Of a stretch of 32,000 nucleotides of DNA, positions 3,925 through 21,681 are shown piece after piece (positions within the stretch are counted from its first letter, which is position 1; the number at the start of each line of letters is the position of its first letter). Under the pieces are notes generated by a model, which was not told the origin of the DNA, did not search any database, and saw only the letters and a program-made list of their open reading frames with translations. A program made the position numbers and the translations under genes. This DNA is from Gammaproteobacteria bacterium (GTDB lineage Bacteria; Pseudomonadota; Gammaproteobacteria; JBIOEC01). Location of the stretch: positions 1,080,001 through 1,112,000 of the forward strand of contig OZ257143.1 in the NCBI GenBank assembly GCA_965279305.1. The letters run 5' to 3'.

Positions 3925-5598
3925 ATGGTAGCAAACGTAAGAACGCCCGAACAAATCGCAATCGCGGAAGAAGCCTTATTCATCCATGTATCCGATTTAC
4001 CTGAAAATTTAGATCAGTATTACTCAAGTCATAAAACAGCGAAAGCCACTCAATTGGGTGTACAGGATCAGATAAAATTGGTGGCTGGTCTTCGAAGTAT
4101 TTTGCGTAATAAAAATTATGACAAACCTGGAAAATTGGAAAGCGAATTAGAACGAATAACAGTAGATGCTAACGTCGCCAAAAAAGCGATGGGTCAATTG
4201 GTCAATCTGCCTACTGCGGTTAAACGTGAAGTGTTTGGTTTTGATAAAAATATTACTGATGCTGGTGTAGAGCAAGCATTTCAATATTGGGTTTCTGGAT
4301 CCAGTATCGTTTTAGATTTGAATGGTGATCCTGCTACGGATGAAAAAGCTACCCAAATCGCCAAAGAAATCACCAGAGCTCCAAGTGCTAAAAAGGAACC
4401 GCGTATTTTGGGAGAAGAATATGATCCTAATATGGTTGAAATGATAGAAAGACATGCCGCCCAAGCGGGCAGACCTGTTACTCCCGTGTCACCAACCGAA
4501 GATATCCCTATTTATAAATCTCTTGATTTTAATACCCAAGGTTTTGAAGCCATTGTTCAGGCTTTAGGTAATGGTTTTATTCTACGAAATATAGATGTTG
4601 GCTTTTTTACCCCACCTGAAAATACAAGCTTATTAGATAGGGCAGCAAGAGTTTTAACCCGAACAAGCAAAGATAAAAACGCTGTATCAGCAGATGCGGT
4701 TGTGGCTTTAGCTAAAATATTACCAGCTCTAGATGCTGATACTTTGAGTTTTAGAGCATGGAATGGATTAGAAGAAGGCGCATTAAATGCGGTTATCGCC
4801 GGTATGGCAAATAATGGACATATTCGAATATTAGATATATCCGGTAGTAAAGTAAGTGAAAATACGGGTAAAGCTTTAGGTCGGATGTTAGCTGAAAATA
4901 AAGGTTTGTTAAGTGTGGTGGTAGATAATTGTTTTTTTGATGTACATGCTTTTAAACCTATACATGCTGGTGTAGAAAAAAATCATAACATCATTAAATT
5001 TGATATTAGTCGTGCTTCCAGTTTCGTTCCGGGTTCTAAAGAATTAGGATCGGTACGTGATATAGCGTTTCATGCTACGAATAGTGATGCGGCTGTCGAA
5101 GCCTGGGGCACAAGAATAGAAAATATACTTTATATGCATCAGTCAGAAGCTGATGCGGCCGTTTTAAAATCGGCTGAAGCAGCAGAAGAAACAGGCTCGG
5201 ATGTTGAGCCAGAAGGTCCAGCTGTTTCGAATATATTGTTCCAAGCTGAATCTAACCTTGCACAAGTGAGAAAGAATAATTTAAAAATCGTTCGTGCTCC
5301 TGCATCACCTGCAAGTAGCGTTTCAAGTTTATCGGGTTCTTCCTCTATGTCTGCCAGTACCGCGAGTATGACATCAGTGGGAACACCTTCAAGTCCAATA
5401 TCACCTGCAACGTCTTCATCATTGTTGTCGGTACCTTCATCACCTGTTCGCAGCAGAATGGTGAGAGCACCTTCTAGAGAAACGCCTCCTGTTTCACCTG
5501 TGGCTTCTCCTAGTGTTGCTAGAAAATTGGTAGTGGCTCCTGTGCCTCAGGGTGTGGATGGTCCTACTCCAAAACCGTCGTCTCCTTCTCCTAAATAA
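3925..5598 (+). CDS. hypothetical protein with RNI/RanGAP-type leucine-rich repeats and a Ser/Pro-rich C-terminal tail (effector-like)
   Basis: 557-aa ORF. Residues ~198-364 (nt ~4516-5016) show a 28-29-residue periodicity of the ribonuclease-inhibitor LRR type, e.g. NGLEEGALNAVIAGMANNGHIRILDISGS, KVSENTGKALGRMLAENKGLLSVVVDNC and FFDVHAFKPIHAGVEKNHNIIKFDISRA. The last ~105 residues are low-complexity S/P/A/V. I recognise no enzymatic motif. Confidence 0.6.
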   Translation: MVANVRTPEQIAIAEEALFIHVSDLPENLDQYYSSHKTAKATQLGVQDQIKLVAGLRSILRNKNYDKPGKLESELERITVDANVAKKAMGQLVNLPTAVKREVFGFDKNITDAGVEQAFQYWVSGSSIVLDLNGDPATDEKATQIAKEITRAPSAKKEPRILGEEYDPNMVEMIERHAAQAGRPVTPVSPTEDIPIYKSLDFNTQGFEAIVQALGNGFILRNIDVGFFTPPENTSLLDRAARVLTRTSKDKNAVSADAVVALAKILPALDADTLSFRAWNGLEEGALNAVIAGMANNGHIRILDISGSKVSENTGKALGRMLAENKGLLSVVVDNCFFDVHAFKPIHAGVEKNHNIIKFDISRASSFVPGSKELGSVRDIAFHATNSDAAVEAWGTRIENILYMHQSEADAAVLKSAEAAEETGSDVEPEGPAVSNILFQAESNLAQVRKNNLKIVRAPASPASSVSSLSGSSSMSASTASMTSVGTPSSPISPATSSSLLSVPSSPVRSRMVRAPSRETPPVSPVASPSVARKLVVAPVPQGVDGPTPKPSSPSPK

Positions 5599-12243: not shown

Positions 12244-12273
12244 TTGATTCAGGATAGCGTTTTGTTTTATTAT
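12244..12273 (+). promoter_or_regulatory. candidate sigma70-type promoter for the 2115-aa ORF
   Basis: TTGATT (12244-12249), an 18-nt spacer, then TATTAT (12268-12273). It is followed by the SD-like AAGGAAG (12302-12308), 6 nt before the ATG at 12315. Confidence 0.3.
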
Positions 12274-12314: not shown

Positions 12315-15300
12315 ATGCCAACAATAAGATCAGAAGGTGGAGTTGCTGTAGCTCCTGCACCAGCCCATTTAACTCTCGCTTACGAAACTACTTTACCTAC
12401 AGAACAGCCCACTACTTTAGCTGCACCCGATCGTATTCGGGAGATGTTCGATAAATTAACTCCAAGTCAAAAAGAAGCGCTAAAGTCCATAGTGATAGGC
12501 GCTATGTCGTTTGGATCTTTGGGTTTAGAGGCTCATAAAGCTATTGCTAAAGATATCAATACGCTTGCCATGCTTCTTCATGGTGTCACTACTATGGCCG
12601 AATTACTGGCCAAAGGCCGTGCTTATCCCATGAGTAATAGTGGCGAAGGTGGAGAGCTGCCATCACGTCTTGGCACAGATGAACAAAGTAGAATGGTTCA
12701 GATAGCATCGGGACATTTCGGTGTAACCATTGAATATGTAGCCAATGCTAGTGGGATCCAAATTAAAATTAATCAAGCCGCTAAGCCTGGACTTGGTGGT
12801 GAACTATTGGCTGTTAAAGTTACTCCCGAAATTGCAGCGGCTCGTTTAGTTCCGCAAGGGATTGATCTTAAATCTCCGCCTCCTCATCACGATCTTTATT
12901 CAGTAGAAGAATTAAAACAATTAATACTGGAATTGCGCATTGCTAATCCTAATGCATTTATTTCAGTGAAACTGGCAGCACAAGAAGGGATCGGTATTAT
13001 TGCTGCTGCTTTAGTAAAATGCGGTGCTGATGATATTTGTATTGCGGGTAAAGGGGGCGGTACAGGTGCTGCTCCTACGGATGCTCTTTATAATTTTGCC
13101 AGACCTTGGGAAACTGCACTGGCTGAAGTGCATCAAACATTAATTGCGAATGGTATACGCGATCGAGTCACTTTAACAGTAAGTGGTGGGATACAAACCG
13201 GGTTTGATTTATTTCTTGCGAAATTACTAGGTGCTGATTTAGGCGAAATAGGAACGCCTGCATTAGTCGCTTTGGGATGTGTGATGGCACGTGTGTGCCA
13301 TGATGGAACGTGCCCTAAAGGTATTGCTACTAATAATCCTGACTACACTTCCAAATTTGAAGGAAAATACGGTGATGTAGCCCAAATGTTGGTTAATCTT
13401 GCTACTTCGTATGATGACCATTTGCAAGAATATGGTTTGACCACTGAAAGTGCTAGAGGAAGAACAGATTTACTGAGAGTAAAAGAAGGCGCTCCTTTTA
13501 CTAATCTTGAAATGCTTTTATTGCAGCCTGAAAACCCTTATAAATCTTTTACTGCTCCTGTCAGAATTGATCCTGTTAGTACTACAGAGCAATATGCGAT
13601 TGAACAAATTCTACAAGGTAAAACGGATATTGTAATAGATGGAAACAATACGAATACCTTAGGTTTTGGTGCACGTATTGGGTATCACTCTGTAAAAACA
13701 GCTGAATTCCAAGATGCTTTTGTTAATCCCGTCACTATTACCTTTAATGGCTTAGCCGTAGGTTCGGGTTTTGGTACTTTTGCACCTGCTGGTCTTACAT
13801 TAGTGGCTCGCAATGCTAATGATGGTGCCGCTAAATCTTTAAGCGGCGCTGATGTTGTCTGTACTCAAAGTATTGGTAATCAAGCCGGTCTTGGTGCTAC
13901 TAGCGGTAGAATATTTGCTCCGGTGTGGGGTGACAGGCCACTGGTTAGAAACTCGGGTGCAATAGCAGTGGCAGAGCGAATTGGTGATTGCGGCGCTAAT
14001 TATATGACGGGCGGTAGTCTTACTATTTTGGGTGATACTCTTGATTACCCCATCACATTTACTCATGGTAATACCAGCTCGCCAATGAAGTTTCGATCTG
14101 ATCGTGTGGGGCCTAATTTCGGATCAGGCATGACGGGCGGGCATGTGTTTATGCCCAGACATTTATATGAAGAGTTATTAAGAAAGAATCATTTAGAAGC
14201 TGCTTTTGCTAATGTTCAACTACAACATTTAAATGAGACTGATGCTGCTGAACTGGCTGCTCTTGTAAAAGACTATTTAACTCATAATTCTAGCGATTGG
14301 GTAAAAGAATTAGTTGAGCAAGAAAATTTTTCACAGTTTTTTATAAAATTAGATCCTCGAGTGCTTAAACCCGTTTTACAACCTGCTTCTGTAGAACCAG
14401 TTAAATCGCCAGATTTACTTCCTGTTCCAGAAATTGTAGTAAGACCACCTTCAGCGGTTCCTGGGCAAGATACTGAAACATCAACAACTGCATCGCTAGA
14501 TAATTTGAGTGTTCCTCCACGAGATGAGCAAGATGCTTGTGGTGTGGGTACTTTTATTAATTTAAAAGGTGAGTCTAGCCGAACTGTGACTGATAATGCA
14601 TTAACTATGCTAGAAAGAATGATGCATAGAGGTGCTAGTGGCGTTGATAAAGACACAGGCGATGGATGCGGTATTGTTTGGTATGGTTTAGAAGAGTTTT
14701 TTCAAGCCGTTTTTCCTGATTTAAATCCTAGAGGAATAAGATTAGAAAGAGGAGCTTATAGTGTTATTCCTATTAGTATCGGAGACGACACATCTTATAG
14801 TGTCCGTCGTGTTTTGAATGAATTATTAATCAAAGAAGATTTACACATTGCAAGTGAAAGAGATGTTCACACGGCCAAGCCTACGGAGAATGATCCTATT
14901 TTCTTAGGTACGATTGGAGCTAGCCAAGAAAAAGGTGTTAAACAATATTTGGTATTGAAGCCAGTTTGGATGAACCAAGAAGAATTTGAAAAACGATTAA
15001 TACGTGTGAGATTACTTTTTGAATTAGATCCAAAAACTCAAGCCAAGGAAAATCGCCCTCATATTTATAGTGCTTCGTCTTATAATGTGATTTATAAATC
15101 ACTCGTTTTAGAAAGTAGATTTAGAAAATATTTTGATGATTTTTTAAATCCGTTATTCAAGGCAAGTGCTGCCGTTTCTCATGCGCGCTTTTCTACCAAT
15201 ACTAAGCCAGTGGGTAAAAATATTCAGCCTACTCCTAACGTAGCGAATAATGGTGAAAATAATAATATTGTGCAGCTGATGCGGCAGATTATGTATAACC

Positions 15301-18300
15301 CTTTATTTGCCAAATTGTTAGGTATTGAACGTATTGATATATCCGGATTAAGCGATTCACACATTATGTCGATAGGTATGGATTTTTTCCGCCTATTAGG
15401 ATTTAGCGCAGAAGAAATTGCCGCGTTAACTATTCAAGCTTACAATCCCAACGATCCTGCTCTTAGCCAATTTTATAATTTATTTGGTAATCCTTTTGAA
15501 GGCCCGAATGCCAGCATTATGATTATTGGTGATAAAATTATTGTGGTAAGAGATCTGAATGGTTTTAGACCGCAAAGAGGAATACGCAACAAAGAATTCT
15601 TCTATTCTGGATCTGAAATTGGTCCGGTGGATGAACCGTTCCAGATGGAAGGAGAACTATTTGATATTCCTCCTGGAAAACCTGTCGTTATTGATTTAAA
15701 AACAGGTACAGTGACTATTGATCCTTTTCAATCGTTTGCCCCTGCACTGGCTGAAAAATTAAAAGCATTAGAAGCCCATTTATCTGCAGATGAGATGCCA
15801 GCCGCTCTTGTTTTTTCACAAGAAGATCTTTCCGTTCGCAAATTACGTGCGGGTTGGGATGCACAAATTGATAGAAAATTTATGCAACCTCTTTTTAATG
15901 GAGGTAAAGGTTCTATTTCTTCCATGGGAGATCAAGGTCCTGATGAAGCATCTGTATCGGGTGGTTTGCTCGTGCTAGGCAATGCTATTCTGGGAAATGT
16001 GGCACAAATTACGAATCCTCCTTTAGATAGAAAGCGTGAAGGCGCTTATATGCAGACGATTACTTTTGTTGGTAAAAAACCTGCATTGGAAGGATTAAGA
16101 AGTAACGATATAGAAGGTGTCACTTTACCTTCACCCATTATTTCTAATGAACAGATGGCTTTATTACAAAATGATAGTCGTTTACGTTCAGAAGTTATTG
16201 ATATAACAATCCCTCTCAACAAGGTGAAAGGTGGTTTAGAAGCGGCTATTAAAAATGTGGTGCTGCATGTTTTGCAGCTGGTTCGTTCGGGTGCAACTTT
16301 TATTACATTATCCGATTTAAATGTAGATAATGAACATGCTGCTATTCCTCCTTTATTAGTAGCGAGTCGTGTCGATCAAGCTTTATTGGAAGCGGGTTTA
16401 CGTCGTAATGTTTCTATTGGGTTACAAGCCGCCAGTGTATTGACGGTGCGTGATGTGGCTCAAGCCATTTCTATTGGTGGTGTTGATTTGGTTAATCCGT
16501 ATTTACCGTTAACGCCTACTTCTCAAGAAGAATTTGCTTCTCCTGAATTTAAACGACGTTCTAAAGAATATATAAAACAATTAACACTAGGGCTGCAAGA
16601 CAATGCTGCTCGTATGGGTATATCAAGTATTTCTGCTTATCGTGGAACCAAAGTATTTAGCGGATATGGATTAAGTGATGATATAGCGAAGATGTTAGGC
16701 ATTCCTTCTATTTTAGGTGGCATTGGTCTATCAGATGTAGAAAATATGGTGGTTAATACACACTGTTATCCTAATCCTGAAGGAAATGGAAAGTATGAAG
16801 GTGGAAGTGAACAGCGCCTCGATATTTGGGGTGATGGAGTAGCTGCAGATGCCGCTAGAATTATCAGTGGAAAATCCAAAACTACCTGGTCTGACATGGA
16901 AGCAAAAATGCAAGCCCGCCAAAATGCGCCACGCAATTTTTTATATTTAGTGCAACCTAAGGTGTGGACAGCTAAAAATCCGATGACCGTTTGTATTTTG
17001 GGTGGTGGTGCCGCTGGTTTTTTTCAAGCAAGAACTTTATTAGATTCTGGATTGCCAGTAAACATTGTTATTATCGAAAAAAATGCTAGAAATCAATTTG
17101 GATTGGTAAAAGACGGTGTTGCACCGGATCATGACGCAACCAAAAGCCGTAGCGAATTGTTACATAGCGTTTTAGATGATCCTCGAGTTAAATATTGGGG
17201 GGGGATAGAAGTGGGTGAGGAAGGAGACAATTCAGTTTCTTTTGCACATTTACAAAAAACGTATCCGTGTATTGTGGATTGCAGAGGAGCTTCGGTAGAT
17301 AATAAATTAGGCGTTCAAGGCGAAAATACGCCTTACGTGATTCCTGCTAGTGTGGTGTATAAATCTTATAATGGTGCAGTGGATCTGGATGCAGAAGGGC
17401 ATAAAGATTGGTGGTTAACGCCACAGAGCCGAAATCTTACGGTTGGCATTATTGGAAATGGAAATGTGGCAGGCGATATTGCGCGAATTTTCTTAGCGGA
17501 TCCTCAAAAATTAGCTCAAACCTCTATTCATCCCATTTTCTTAAATTCATTAAAAAAAGATGCTCCGCAAGTGGTTCGCGTATTTGCACGTGGTAATGCA
17601 CATGAAACCAAAATAGATTTACATCAATTGAAGGCATTAGAAACATTAGGAATACAAATTTCAGTATCTATGCCTGCTTTGAAAGAAGGCCAGCAGCTTA
17701 CTGATGAGCAACGTGCGCTGTATAGTTTTTTTGCTCAATATAAAGATAAAAAATATCCACCATCTAGTAAAAAAACATTGCATTTCCATTTTGGAATGAC
17801 CCCGCAAAAATTTGAAGCGGGACAAAAAGAAGTAACAGGATTTTTTACTGACTCTAGTGGAAACATTATTGCTTTTGATGCACGTAATTTTATTACGGCT
17901 ATTGGAACCAAACGATTATCGGATATACAAAGAACACCTTATGCTAGCGGTTGGGTAGCAGGACAAGGTGGTACTTTAGATAAAGCAGAAGACAGTGCAC
18001 AAGCTACTACCGATATAATTGTTAAAGATTTTAATGCGGGCAAATTTCATAATACTTTGCGACCACCAGTAAAACAACATTGGCACAAACTGGCTCAAGT
18101 GACCAATGGTATGTTCTTGAATATTCTTGCTTATGTGGCCAGTGGTGGTCGAATAGATACTCAAGACGGTCTTGAAAAAGCCAAAGCCTATTCTAGAGGA
18201 AACGGAAGTAGTGCCAAGCTTAAAGTAGCACCCCAACCCGTTCCAGCTCCTGCAGCAGATGTAGATCGCAACACTATTCGTGTTGAAGATAAAGATGGAA

Positions 18301-18662
18301 ATGTGACAGTGTTGCCTATACCTGAGGAAAATGTTTCTTTATTAGAATATTTAGATAAAACTCAGCCTAGCGGAAAAGTACCTGAAGCCGAATGTGGTGG
18401 TAAAGGAAATTGCGCTACTTGTGGGGTAGATGTGCTTGAAATAGAAGACTTAGGTGGATTGTTGAGTCATCGAAAAGAGCAGGGAAGAGATGTTGGGCCT
18501 GAGGGTGAAAGAAGAAGATTGTCTTGTTTGCATCAGACAGATGAGTTTACAGGTCAAGGTGCAAAAGTAAGAATAGTGAAACCGCAGAATGCGCCAGCAC
18601 CTGCTGCCTCGAACGCGCCAGACCCCGGTCCAAAACCTCTATCTGTTGCCTCTATGCAGTGA
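12315..18662 (+). CDS. giant multidomain flavo-iron-sulfur protein: circularly permuted glutamate synthase large-subunit homolog fused to an adrenodoxin-reductase-like domain and a [2Fe-2S] ferredoxin domain
   Basis: Uninterrupted 2115-aa ORF with a good SD. Domains N to C: the GltS FMN domain (SNSGEGGE at nt 12633, SPPPHHDLYSVEEL, GGGTGAAP, Cys322-x5-Cys328-x4-Cys333 at 13278-13313). Next the GXGXG domain (VRNSGAIAVAE, GDCGANYMTGG, GSGMTGGHVF) and a Pro-rich linker. Then the class-II amidotransferase domain starting CGVGTF (Cys742, nt 14538) with HRGA, HARFSTNT and NNGE. Then the GltS central domain (VAQITNPPLDRKREG). Then an AdR/FprA-type reductase (ILGGGAAG, FGLVKDGVAPDH, GNGNVAGDIARI, SGWV). 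Last, an Adx-type ferredoxin (C2027-x5-C-x2-C-x34-C2071). Confidence 0.85.
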   Translation: MPTIRSEGGVAVAPAPAHLTLAYETTLPTEQPTTLAAPDRIREMFDKLTPSQKEALKSIVIGAMSFGSLGLEAHKAIAKDINTLAMLLHGVTTMAELLAKGRAYPMSNSGEGGELPSRLGTDEQSRMVQIASGHFGVTIEYVANASGIQIKINQAAKPGLGGELLAVKVTPEIAAARLVPQGIDLKSPPPHHDLYSVEELKQLILELRIANPNAFISVKLAAQEGIGIIAAALVKCGADDICIAGKGGGTGAAPTDALYNFARPWETALAEVHQTLIANGIRDRVTLTVSGGIQTGFDLFLAKLLGADLGEIGTPALVALGCVMARVCHDGTCPKGIATNNPDYTSKFEGKYGDVAQMLVNLATSYDDHLQEYGLTTESARGRTDLLRVKEGAPFTNLEMLLLQPENPYKSFTAPVRIDPVSTTEQYAIEQILQGKTDIVIDGNNTNTLGFGARIGYHSVKTAEFQDAFVNPVTITFNGLAVGSGFGTFAPAGLTLVARNANDGAAKSLSGADVVCTQSIGNQAGLGATSGRIFAPVWGDRPLVRNSGAIAVAERIGDCGANYMTGGSLTILGDTLDYPITFTHGNTSSPMKFRSDRVGPNFGSGMTGGHVFMPRHLYEELLRKNHLEAAFANVQLQHLNETDAAELAALVKDYLTHNSSDWVKELVEQENFSQFFIKLDPRVLKPVLQPASVEPVKSPDLLPVPEIVVRPPSAVPGQDTETSTTASLDNLSVPPRDEQDACGVGTFINLKGESSRTVTDNALTMLERMMHRGASGVDKDTGDGCGIVWYGLEEFFQAVFPDLNPRGIRLERGAYSVIPISIGDDTSYSVRRVLNELLIKEDLHIASERDVHTAKPTENDPIFLGTIGASQEKGVKQYLVLKPVWMNQEEFEKRLIRVRLLFELDPKTQAKENRPHIYSASSYNVIYKSLVLESRFRKYFDDFLNPLFKASAAVSHARFSTNTKPVGKNIQPTPNVANNGENNNIVQLMRQIMYNPLFAKLLGIERIDISGLSDSHIMSIGMDFFRLLGFSAEEIAALTIQAYNPNDPALSQFYNLFGNPFEGPNASIMIIGDKIIVVRDLNGFRPQRGIRNKEFFYSGSEIGPVDEPFQMEGELFDIPPGKPVVIDLKTGTVTIDPFQSFAPALAEKLKALEAHLSADEMPAALVFSQEDLSVRKLRAGWDAQIDRKFMQPLFNGGKGSISSMGDQGPDEASVSGGLLVLGNAILGNVAQITNPPLDRKREGAYMQTITFVGKKPALEGLRSNDIEGVTLPSPIISNEQMALLQNDSRLRSEVIDITIPLNKVKGGLEAAIKNVVLHVLQLVRSGATFITLSDLNVDNEHAAIPPLLVASRVDQALLEAGLRRNVSIGLQAASVLTVRDVAQAISIGGVDLVNPYLPLTPTSQEEFASPEFKRRSKEYIKQLTLGLQDNAARMGISSISAYRGTKVFSGYGLSDDIAKMLGIPSILGGIGLSDVENMVVNTHCYPNPEGNGKYEGGSEQRLDIWGDGVAADAARIISGKSKTTWSDMEAKMQARQNAPRNFLYLVQPKVWTAKNPMTVCILGGGAAGFFQARTLLDSGLPVNIVIIEKNARNQFGLVKDGVAPDHDATKSRSELLHSVLDDPRVKYWGGIEVGEEGDNSVSFAHLQKTYPCIVDCRGASVDNKLGVQGENTPYVIPASVVYKSYNGAVDLDAEGHKDWWLTPQSRNLTVGIIGNGNVAGDIARIFLADPQKLAQTSIHPIFLNSLKKDAPQVVRVFARGNAHETKIDLHQLKALETLGIQISVSMPALKEGQQLTDEQRALYSFFAQYKDKKYPPSSKKTLHFHFGMTPQKFEAGQKEVTGFFTDSSGNIIAFDARNFITAIGTKRLSDIQRTPYASGWVAGQGGTLDKAEDSAQATTDIIVKDFNAGKFHNTLRPPVKQHWHKLAQVTNGMFLNILAYVASGGRIDTQDGLEKAKAYSRGNGSSAKLKVAPQPVPAPAADVDRNTIRVEDKDGNVTVLPIPEENVSLLEYLDKTQPSGKVPEAECGGKGNCATCGVDVLEIEDLGGLLSHRKEQGRDVGPEGERRRLSCLHQTDEFTGQGAKVRIVKPQNAPAPAASNAPDPGPKPLSVASMQ

Positions 18663-21040: not shown

Positions 21041-21133
21041 TCGAACTTTAGTTCGACCAAATTGCCAGGAGCAATTTGGAACGCACGAAGTGCGGCCCCG
21101 AATGAAATGAGGGGCGAGGCGCAGGGATGCGCC
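21041..21133. repeat. run of five short hairpins between the tRNA-Glu terminator and the duplicated tRNA 3' segment
   Basis: The hairpins are TCGAACT-TT-AGTTCGA (21041-21056), CCAAATTGC-CAGGA-GCAATTTGG (21057-21079), CGCAC-GAA-GTGCG (21082-21094), GCCCC-N11-GGGGC (21095-21115) and GGCGCA-GGGA-TGCGCC (21118-21133). Confidence 0.55.
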
Positions 21134-21137
21134 GAGT

Positions 21138-21152
21138 AATCCCCTTGGGGAC
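21138..21152 (+). repeat. 15-bp perfect direct repeat of the tRNA-Glu T-arm/acceptor 3' segment (att-like scar)
   Basis: AATCCCCTTGGGGAC at 21138-21152 is identical to 20958-20972 inside tRNA-Glu. The second copy has no CCA and no upstream tRNA body. Confidence 0.8.
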
Positions 21153-21186
21153 ACTACTTTATTGGGCTTTTTTAACAGGTGTACCT

Positions 21187-21681
21187 ATGCAAGAAATTAT
21201 CGCTATCGAGACCTTAAGAAATGCTTTTCGCCCAATAGAGCAATTTAAAGCAGAGCATACTACGTTCAATATGCTGACTTTTCATAGTGCTGCTCGAAAT
21301 GCTTTGCTAGCTATGGAGATCGCCACTCGAATAATGACAGATAGTAATGTGCTAGGTAGGATGGAACCACACTTTCAGCAGGCATTTTATCTTTCCAATA
21401 GTGGTATGCTCTTCACTATTATTGCTTTCCGTTTTCATTCTCTGATAGGGCAACTGGGTGATGATAAGAAAGCAGAGCTTTCAGAGGATTCTATTAAAGC
21501 AGAAGCGGCTACTCGCTTCTCTCATATATCTACCCTGCAGCAACTACTGAACAGTCCAGACTCACCTTATTTTAGGGCGATAGAGCATTTTACTACCCTT
21601 AAAAATGCACAACTTGCTGTTACACCTCCTAGCGTGCCGCCTGCACCAGCACGTGGACCTTCAGTTGCTCCTGCTGCATAA
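21187..21681 (+). CDS. orphan hypothetical protein with a Pro/Ala-rich C-terminal tail
   Basis: The ORF track gives 21127-21681, but its first 20 codons overlap the hairpin run and the tRNA-derived repeat. The internal ATG at 21187 has an AGGTG SD (21177-21181) 5 nt upstream, giving 164 aa (MQEIIAIETLRN...). I recognise no family. The tail is TPPSVPPAPARGPSVAPAA. A terminator follows. Confidence 0.55.
   Translation: MQEIIAIETLRNAFRPIEQFKAEHTTFNMLTFHSAARNALLAMEIATRIMTDSNVLGRMEPHFQQAFYLSNSGMLFTIIAFRFHSLIGQLGDDKKAELSEDSIKAEAATRFSHISTLQQLLNSPDSPYFRAIEHFTTLKNAQLAVTPPSVPPAPARGPSVAPAA

Follow-up and report, generated by a model that had tools for sequence, protein, structure and literature searches.

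A circularly permuted glutamate synthase with fused reductase and ferredoxin-like domains and a probable processing site before its internal catalytic cysteine

The window analyzed here is a 32-kb stretch (32,000 nucleotides) of contig OZ257143.1 from a Gammaproteobacteria bacterium (assembly GCA_965279305.1, positions 1,080,001 to 1,112,000 of the forward strand). Within it lies an open reading frame (ORF) of 2115 codons, free of internal stops, whose product is related to glutamate synthase (GltS). Domain searches and comparison with homologues revealed, in order from the N terminus, a flavin mononucleotide (FMN)-binding synthase domain, a GXGXG beta-helix domain, a disordered linker of 60 residues, a class-II glutamine amidotransferase (GAT) domain, the GltS central domain, an FprA/adrenodoxin-reductase-like domain, and a 2Fe-2S ferredoxin-like (Fd) domain (Table 1).

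The canonical order, as described for GltB of A. brasilense, is amidotransferase (1-422), central (423-780), FMN (781-1202), and beta-helix (1203-1472) (PMC8097209). The 2115-residue protein contains all four of these domains but starts with the FMN and beta-helix pair, and its order is therefore a circular permutation of that in GltB. The NCBIfam GltB equivalog model scored 642.7 bits against a cut-off of 1047, and did so in two stretches, the best of which covered query residues 54-678. The reductase domain matched M. tuberculosis FprA (1lqt_A, E=2.6e-24) and bovine adrenodoxin reductase (1cjc_A, E=2.2e-21), both closer to it than GltD, whose models gave only 26.9 bits on residues 1546-1725 against a cut-off of 447.7. 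The match to the Fer2 family PF00111 was weak and below the cut-off (18.5 bits versus 21, E=0.002), and this family is on record for the orthologues P0003, P0012, P0015, and P0016. The C2027-x5-C2033-x2-C2036 pattern and a fourth cysteine, C2071 here, have aligned counterparts in the 21 ferredoxin-bearing orthologues, with one substitution in P0002. The protein is thus almost certainly a circularly permuted GltS in which an FprA/adrenodoxin-reductase-like domain and a 2Fe-2S ferredoxin-like domain take the place of GltD.

Table 1. Features of the permuted glutamate synthase gene, with nucleotide positions numbered from the first letter of the window.
Feature	Residues	Position	Strand	Basis or remarks
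Whole ORF, circularly permuted glutamate synthase with fused reductase and ferredoxin	2115 aa	12315..18662	+	Domain searches and homologues
N-terminal leader	1-51	12315..12467	+	Variable in alignment; residues 1-37 with AlphaFold2 (AF2) predicted local distance difference test score (pLDDT) <50, predicted disordered
FMN-binding synthase domain	52-374	12468..13436	+	PF01645 Glu_synthase, E=5.9e-100
E198 in FMN domain	198	12906-12908	+	Aligns with E1013 of Synechocystis Fd-GltS (1llw_A)
3Fe-4S ligands	C322/C328/C333	13278-13313	+	Invariant in alignment; segment GCVMARVCHDGTCPKG
GXGXG beta-helix domain	452-614	13668..14156	+	PF01493, E=5.5e-22
Helical tail of beta-helix module	615-681	14157..14357	+	Ends in conserved FIKLDP motif, 14340-14357
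Pro/Val/Ser-rich linker	682-733	14358..14513	+	pLDDT 26-31, without secondary structure
Pro-segment with predicted cleavage-site motif, PPRDEQDA	734-741	14514..14537	+	Family consensus E-K/R-D-A/S
Cys742 (TGT), N-terminal nucleophile (Ntn); predicted scissile bond Ala741-Cys742	742	14538..14540	+	Profile start and structure alignments
Class-II (Ntn) glutamine amidotransferase domain	742-1134	14538..15716	+	PF00310 GATase_2, E=1.1e-50; R772, H956-ARFSTNT, N978-NGE, S1013-DS
GltS central domain	1180-1454	15852..16676	+	PF04898 Glu_syn_central, E=9e-50
FprA/adrenodoxin-reductase-like flavin adenine dinucleotide (FAD)/NADPH domain	~1546-1950	16950..18164	+	PDB matches; ILGGGAAGF 1561-1569, GVAPDH 1601-1606
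Plant-type 2Fe-2S ferredoxin-like domain	~2000-2090	18312..18584	+	C2027, C2033, C2036, C2071

Class-II amidotransferases are the textbook Ntn enzymes, in which the free alpha-amine of Cys1 serves as the general base. The initial annotation had noted that the amidotransferase domain of the present protein begins far inside the chain at Cys742, behind a low-complexity segment, and with neither an in-frame stop nor a plausible internal start before it; each of these points was borne out. The PF00310 match begins at profile position 1 with Cys742, which phmmer searches of the PDB placed opposite the first residue of three mature chains (1ea0_A, 2vdc_A, and 1llw_A) and opposite Cys22 of full-length B. 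subtilis GltA (7mfm_G). The sequence context of the cysteine is PPRDEQDA followed by CGVGTFINLKGE. The 60 residues that separate the beta-helix module from the cysteine (682-741) include 11 prolines and nine valines and are rich in serine as well. The only in-frame codons resembling starts in this interval are GTG (V683) and TTG (L731), and no Shine-Dalgarno-like sequence was found upstream of either. An internal translation start was ruled out on these grounds and because neither codon would yield a protein with cysteine at position 2, so that processing would still be needed after initiation at either one.

The residues immediately preceding the nucleophile were then compared with those of ordinary GltB, using the eight residues before the cysteine in 32 permuted proteins and 80 canonical sequences. 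At position -4, glutamate is found in 79 of the 80 canonical and 23 of the 32 permuted sequences, and at -3 a basic residue in all 80 canonical sequences (H/R/K) and 23 of the 32 permuted ones (K/R). Position -2 is aspartate in 69 and glutamate in eight canonical sequences, and aspartate in 27/32 permuted ones; position -1 is occupied by alanine (59), serine (16), or asparagine (5) in the canonical set and by alanine (20), serine (8), asparagine (3), or glutamine (1) in the permuted set. The respective consensus sequences before the cysteine are E-H-D-A and E-K-D-A, and the 2115-residue protein carries D-E-Q-D-A. Permuted junctions include GLYDPSAAPKDS/CGTG in P0012, SLYDPMVEKDA/CGVG in P0014, and SLYDPTVMEKDA/CGTG in P0004, and several members of the family also keep the GLYDP sequence that lies upstream in canonical propeptides. 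The propeptides of canonical GltB are 10-94 residues long (median 21). The crystallized canonical GltS chains start at Cys1, and in B. subtilis GltA the catalytic cysteine encoded by codon 22 is termed C1, "the N-terminal cysteine," its C1A replacement abolishing activity. Since the canonical enzymes lose this segment, its conservation is most simply read as that of a processing determinant, and the permuted family has retained it.

The remainder of the linker is under little constraint. The interval from the FIKLDP motif to the cysteine varies from 30 to 115 residues across homologues (median 60), column conservation in residues 682-733 is 0.24 compared to 0.58-0.71 in the domains, and pairs of proteins with 42-45% overall identity share just 7-15% in the linker. 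Aligning orthologues over the junction and linker had been suggested as a check on the initial annotation, and of the two it is the junction that is conserved, with Cys-Gly (C742-G743) invariant in 32/32 permuted members and the pro-motif kept. An AF2 model of residues 1-1200, built with the family alignment, had a mean pLDDT of 77.8 and a predicted template modeling score of 0.80. In this model residues 688-741 are devoid of secondary structure with pLDDT <50, and the first strand of the amidotransferase domain begins exactly at residue 742.

The permuted family is real but rare. A word-indexed search recovered an identical protein on a 1.87-Mb contig and approximately 24 further proteins of 1774-2283 residues that are 37-91% identical and cover 63-99% of the query, whereas ordinary GltB proteins of 1400-1590 residues covered only about 30%. 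When 1.84 billion proteins were searched exhaustively with HMMER, using the 661 C-terminal residues specific to the family as query, only 24 representatives reached E<=1e-30; the members found included some that are not FMN-first. Scans of genome contigs with exact junction peptides yielded no family members, and scans by reductase-domain alignment yielded FprA-like reductases at 29-38% identity with no family member among the matches listed; these scans do not establish the absence of the family from GTDB representatives. Database names are generic, EKD74129.1 for example being recorded as "glutamate synthase, large subunit, partial." The residue conservation described below was assessed in an alignment of 25 full-length or near full-length permuted homologues, 37-91% identical.

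Relatives in which the same modules are distributed over chains in other ways proved informative with respect to the junction. On a bacterial contig (L083, GCA_003265895.1), protein P0129 (1439 aa) has a 94-aa leader ending DKDA/CGTG, followed by the GAT, central, reductase, and Fd domains, and the TAA stop of its gene overlaps the ATG (TAATG) of a gene (14320-16422) encoding a 700-aa FMN and GXGXG protein. At locus L085, the gene for P0135 (1426 aa, with a 73-aa leader) is followed 48 nt downstream by one for a 694-aa FMN and GXGXG protein. These two separate FMN/GXGXG proteins terminate within a few residues of the equivalent of FIKLDP, in ...WFVKVTPK and ...YFCVLTREVPTPQMRLR, respectively, which is the point where the linker starts in the 2115-residue protein. 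The opposite fusion order is found in P0140 (2187 aa), where a 99-aa leader precedes the GAT, central, reductase, Fd, FMN, and GXGXG domains. At L087 (4680-10926 and 10948-12036), a 426-aa FMN gene lies 40 nt upstream of a 1641-aa gene for GXGXG, linker, GAT, central, reductase, and Fd domains, either a fourth way of arranging the chains or a broken gene; the gene that follows has a weak match to the mitochondrial-carrier family (PF00153), unusual on a bacterial contig. The FMN-first, GAT-first, and split forms have the same seven modules and one circular order in common. In the GAT-first and split members a propeptide of 73-99 residues stands directly before the cysteine and ordinary propeptide removal would suffice, whereas in the 2115-residue protein the counterpart of that propeptide is fused to the C terminus of the FMN/GXGXG module. 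The comparison suggests that the linker is the old propeptide of a GAT-first chain, now tethered to that module.

In a neighbor-joining tree of the GAT and central domains, calculated without support values, the reductase-fused family stood apart from canonical GltB, and the GAT-first and split forms fell near its base, among the FMN-first forms. This placement weakly suggests repeated gene fission and refusion within the family.

We read the 2115-residue protein as a self-sufficient NADPH (reduced nicotinamide adenine dinucleotide phosphate)-dependent permuted glutamate synthase, whose precursor would be cut between Ala741 and Cys742, probably by Cys742 itself, into two chains that stay associated, and we assign this reading a probability of about 0.65. 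The architecture, the conservation, the identity of the motif, and the existence of relatives that are split or fused in the other order are observed, whereas we infer that the bond is cut, that the cut is autocatalytic, that electrons take the path given below, and that the enzyme still depends on glutamine. Electrons would pass from NADPH through FAD, the 2Fe-2S cluster, and the 3Fe-4S cluster (C322/C328/C333) to FMN, and glutamine would be hydrolyzed at Cys742, the ammonia being channeled to 2-oxoglutarate at the FMN site. Since the permutation puts the Ntn nucleophile inside the chain, the precursor would have to be cut before Cys742 to free it. The predicted scissile bond falls at the same E-basic-D-small/C-G site at which canonical GltB sheds its propeptide, and the cut would probably proceed by an intramolecular N-to-S acyl shift driven by Cys742. 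The predicted products are an FMN/3Fe-4S/beta-helix chain of ~80 kDa, with the former propeptide left as a floppy tail at its C terminus, and a glutaminase-central-reductase-ferredoxin chain of ~150 kDa, both masses being estimates from residue counts; the two would remain non-covalently associated. Such a two-chain product would match the relatives in which the halves are separate gene products.

That the Ala741-Cys742 bond is cleaved by some means appears probable from sequence comparison. A cut at this position is the most economical proposal because selection on the site is strong, the canonical motif is kept, and the halves exist separately in relatives. Of three options put forward in the initial annotation, the first, cleavage into chains of 741 and 1374 residues, is the one favored by the comparative evidence, since two relatives encode exactly these chains as separate genes, the canonical motif precedes Cys742, and the linker is disordered and unconstrained. 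The second option, an unusually long propeptide, amounts to the first, given that a 73-99-aa propeptide takes the place of the linker in the GAT-first relatives. That reading was to this extent upheld, but it had recognized neither the circular permutation nor the three or four alternative chain arrangements of the family. By analogy with other Ntn enzymes, we consider the chances that the bond is self-cleaved to be even.

Several points weigh against this reading. The argument for cleavage in the permuted family comes from comparison of sequences, and the open-access literature gave no statement on how GltS propeptides are removed. The autocatalytic step draws on analogy with other Ntn enzymes and on literature on the glutamine phosphoribosyl pyrophosphate amidotransferase PurF of B. 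subtilis. Conservation of the glutaminase residues speaks for selection on the site and not for any particular way of freeing the alpha-amine. The 2115-residue protein has glutamine at -3, where the family prefers lysine or arginine. Finally, the pro-motif is a low-confidence region of the AF2 model, which leaves a strained scissile bond in the active site without structural support.

The strongest competitor to self-cleavage is that a host protease or peptidase cuts the Ala741-Cys742 bond, either by recognizing E-x-D-A or by trimming the linker. A conserved motif on the propeptide side of the bond, in canonical GltB and the permuted family alike, would be expected of a recognition site for a protease, and the linker is predicted by AF2 to be exposed and disordered. 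The same motif is, however, common to the GltB proteins of very distant phyla and to a rare permuted family, so that a universally conserved dedicated protease would be required, while other Ntn enzymes process themselves. Autocatalysis is favored because the motif is shared by such distant hosts, and we regard the protease as unlikely.

We then considered the glutaminase site itself. Residues C742, G743, R772, H956, R958, T961, N962, N978, N979, G980, E981, S1013, D1014, and S1015 are invariant in the 25-sequence alignment, as are the 3Fe-4S cysteines C322/C328/C333, and D740 is nearly so; the glutaminase residues keep their identity in homologues down to 37% identity. R772 and the HxRFxTN, NNGE, and SDS residues match HRG, RFSTN, NGE, and SDS in aligned GltS structures, including 7mfm and 6s6s; R772 corresponds to the arginine by which the carboxylate of the substrate is bound, and N979-G980 to the Asn-Gly pair of the oxyanion hole. 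E198, within PPPHHDLYSVEEL, is also invariant and corresponds to E1013 of Synechocystis Fd-GltS in the sequence HHDIYSIEDL, as counted in the 1llw alignment. E1013 lies in loop 4 of the synthase domain, and we take it to couple the synthase site to Cys1.

These residues bear on the third option of the initial annotation, a dead or repurposed glutaminase, which their invariance and that of E198 make unlikely. In its fuller form this alternative holds that the protein stays uncleaved with a silent amidotransferase domain, either using free ammonia or keeping the domain in a structural or regulatory role only. It would accommodate an internal Cys742 that no start codon exposes, and isolated GltS synthase sites are able to use ammonia. 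It would not account for the conservation of every glutaminase residue checked, the Cys-Gly pair, and the residue aligned with E1013, and related loci lie in glutamine-linked surroundings, next to glnA, carAB, and genes for arginine synthesis. We therefore consider a silent domain quite improbable. More improbable still is an uncleaved polypeptide that is an active glutaminase, its internal cysteine served by a general base other than a free alpha-amino group; nothing speaks positively for it, it has no known precedent among class-II amidotransferases, it would leave the conserved canonical cleavage-site motif unexplained, and the predicted first strand starts at Cys742 as in mature Ntn domains. 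That the long ORF is an artefact, either of two genes merged by sequencing or assembly error or of a recent pseudogene fusion, might be entertained given the two-gene relatives but can be dismissed, because the FMN-first fusion recurs, likewise uninterrupted and with all domains conserved, in more than 30 independently assembled homologues, and because the split relatives have the opposite gene order, from which simple read-through cannot yield an FMN-first protein.

Compared to the alpha subunit of bacterial NADPH-GltS (GltB/GltA; 1EA0, 2VDC, 6S6S, 7MFM), the permuted protein has the same four domains, catalytic residues, and cluster ligands and the same E-basic-D-A/C-G motif before the nucleophile, but the order is rotated and the nucleophile is residue 742 instead of following a 10-94-aa propeptide. 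In the GltB and GltD holoenzyme, GltD with its two 4Fe-4S clusters is the electron source, whereas here an FprA-like reductase and a 2Fe-2S domain are fused to the synthase, and no gltD was found among the ORFs of the window. Fd-GltS of Synechocystis (1LLW/1OFD) is likewise a single large chain, presumably supplied with electrons by a plant-type 2Fe-2S ferredoxin, and shares the E198/E1013 residue; in the permuted protein, in contrast, the ferredoxin is covalently attached together with its own NADPH reductase, the domain order is permuted, and the synthase-domain insertion specific to Fd-GltS is absent from the 1llw alignment. The reductase portion is homologous to the FAD/NADPH domain of FprA and adrenodoxin reductase (1LQT, 1CJC) and shares their GxGxxG and GVAPDH motifs, but here it is one domain of a 2115-aa enzyme and is followed by its own ferredoxin; stand-alone relatives were 29-38% identical among the matches listed.

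The proposed maturation would resemble that of gamma-glutamyltranspeptidase or penicillin acylase more than that of any described class-II amidotransferase. The same logic, an internal nucleophile freed by cleavage of the preceding bond, applies to gamma-glutamyltranspeptidase, penicillin G acylase, glycosylasparaginase/Taspase1, and the proteasome beta subunits, and these self-processing Ntn hydrolases also keep the large N-terminal fragment as a subunit, as we propose here. They belong to a different branch of the Ntn fold, use Thr, Ser, or Cys as nucleophile in hydrolase chemistry, and have been proven to self-cleave, whereas self-cleavage of the permuted GltS is predicted by likeness. B. 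subtilis PurF reportedly exposes Cys1 by removal of an 11-residue propeptide and not of Met; there the propeptide is short and discarded, while here it would comprise 741 residues and half of the catalytic machinery. No class-II amidotransferase that is processed into two chains is known to us, and our literature searches found neither such an enzyme nor a description of a permuted or reductase-fused GltS. The balance tips slightly toward this protein being the first class-II (PurF-type) amidotransferase to mature in the manner of gamma-glutamyltranspeptidase and penicillin acylase, that is, by self-cleavage with the 741-residue "propeptide" kept as the FMN/3Fe-4S synthase half.

To our knowledge, the mechanism by which GltS loses its propeptide has never been settled, and a natural variant with a 741-residue, functionally indispensable "propeptide" makes the question directly testable. 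The fused FprA-type reductase and 2Fe-2S ferredoxin would represent a third electron route to glutamate synthase beside the known routes through GltD and free ferredoxin, and a single-gene NADPH-driven glutamate synthase could serve metabolic engineering. If the proposal is correct, cleavage could serve as an assembly checkpoint, with the glutaminase remaining off until folding of the entire redox machine is complete, and the occurrence of split, GAT-first, and FMN-first forms side by side would document in nature how gene fission and refusion bring about circular permutation. Two genes, one fusion order, and the opposite order make a clean natural series on the origin of circular permutations.

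Some members of the family departed from the common pattern. P0022, P0023, and P0024 (1774-1818 aa) are permuted but break off some 250 residues after the start of the reductase domain, without a ferredoxin domain. The closest relative of the 2115-residue protein, P0002 (on an 8.7-kb Logan contig), is a mosaic in its similarity to it: the FMN and central domains are 99.4% and 97.8% identical, respectively, whereas identity falls to 82.7% over the amidotransferase domain and to 44% over the pro-motif. This pattern points to recombination among lineages or to chimerism in a metagenome assembly. The N termini of P0127, P0129, P0135, P0136, P0137, P0140, and the product of the second gene at L083 are leaders of 50-100 residues in which Arg, Ser, and Leu abound and acidic residues are scarce, as in MLRMASTRLTFAHSLGHFISPLTRSFS; they resemble mitochondrial presequences. 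A eukaryotic origin was considered on account of these leaders and dropped, as both the gene content and the gene overlaps of the inspected contigs are bacterial.

Within the window, the genes upstream of the permuted GltS gene are purK, purE, a Sua5/YrdC-family gene, asd, fimV, truA, and ppsA, and those downstream are a Redoxin/AhpC-family peroxiredoxin gene, purB, rpsB, tsf, pyrH, frr, uppS, cdsA, rseP, bamA, and skp. In a comparison of EF-Ts, the best named matches (Thiotrichales, Francisellaceae, and Competibacteraceae) were no more than 59% identical, which makes the host a gammaproteobacterium distant from named groups; the asd-fimV-truA gene order is consistent with this placement. Two further ORFs of the window, at 3925-5598 (+, 557 aa) and 21127-21681 (+, 184 aa), had no Pfam match at E<=0.001. 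A scan for promoters and terminators gave nothing above the shuffled expectation and no site near the linker/Cys742 junction. The 273-nt intergenic region between ppsA and the GltS gene held a sole promoter-like match, TTGATT-18-TATTAT at 12244-12273 (+), 42 nt before the ATG, which is weak in that shuffled sequence held more sites overall than the scanned sequence did. On the opposite strand, across the linker and junction, a GTG-initiated ORF of 124 aa at 14282-14656 (-) is most likely a chance ORF. Among the relatives, nitrogen-metabolism genes are found as neighbors at L001 (1-9437; argJ, argC, carA, carB, argF, argG, and argH), L084 (2224-6543; carAB), and L083 (1-736; glnA), whereas the copy in the window sits between ppsA and the Redoxin/AhpC-family gene with purB.

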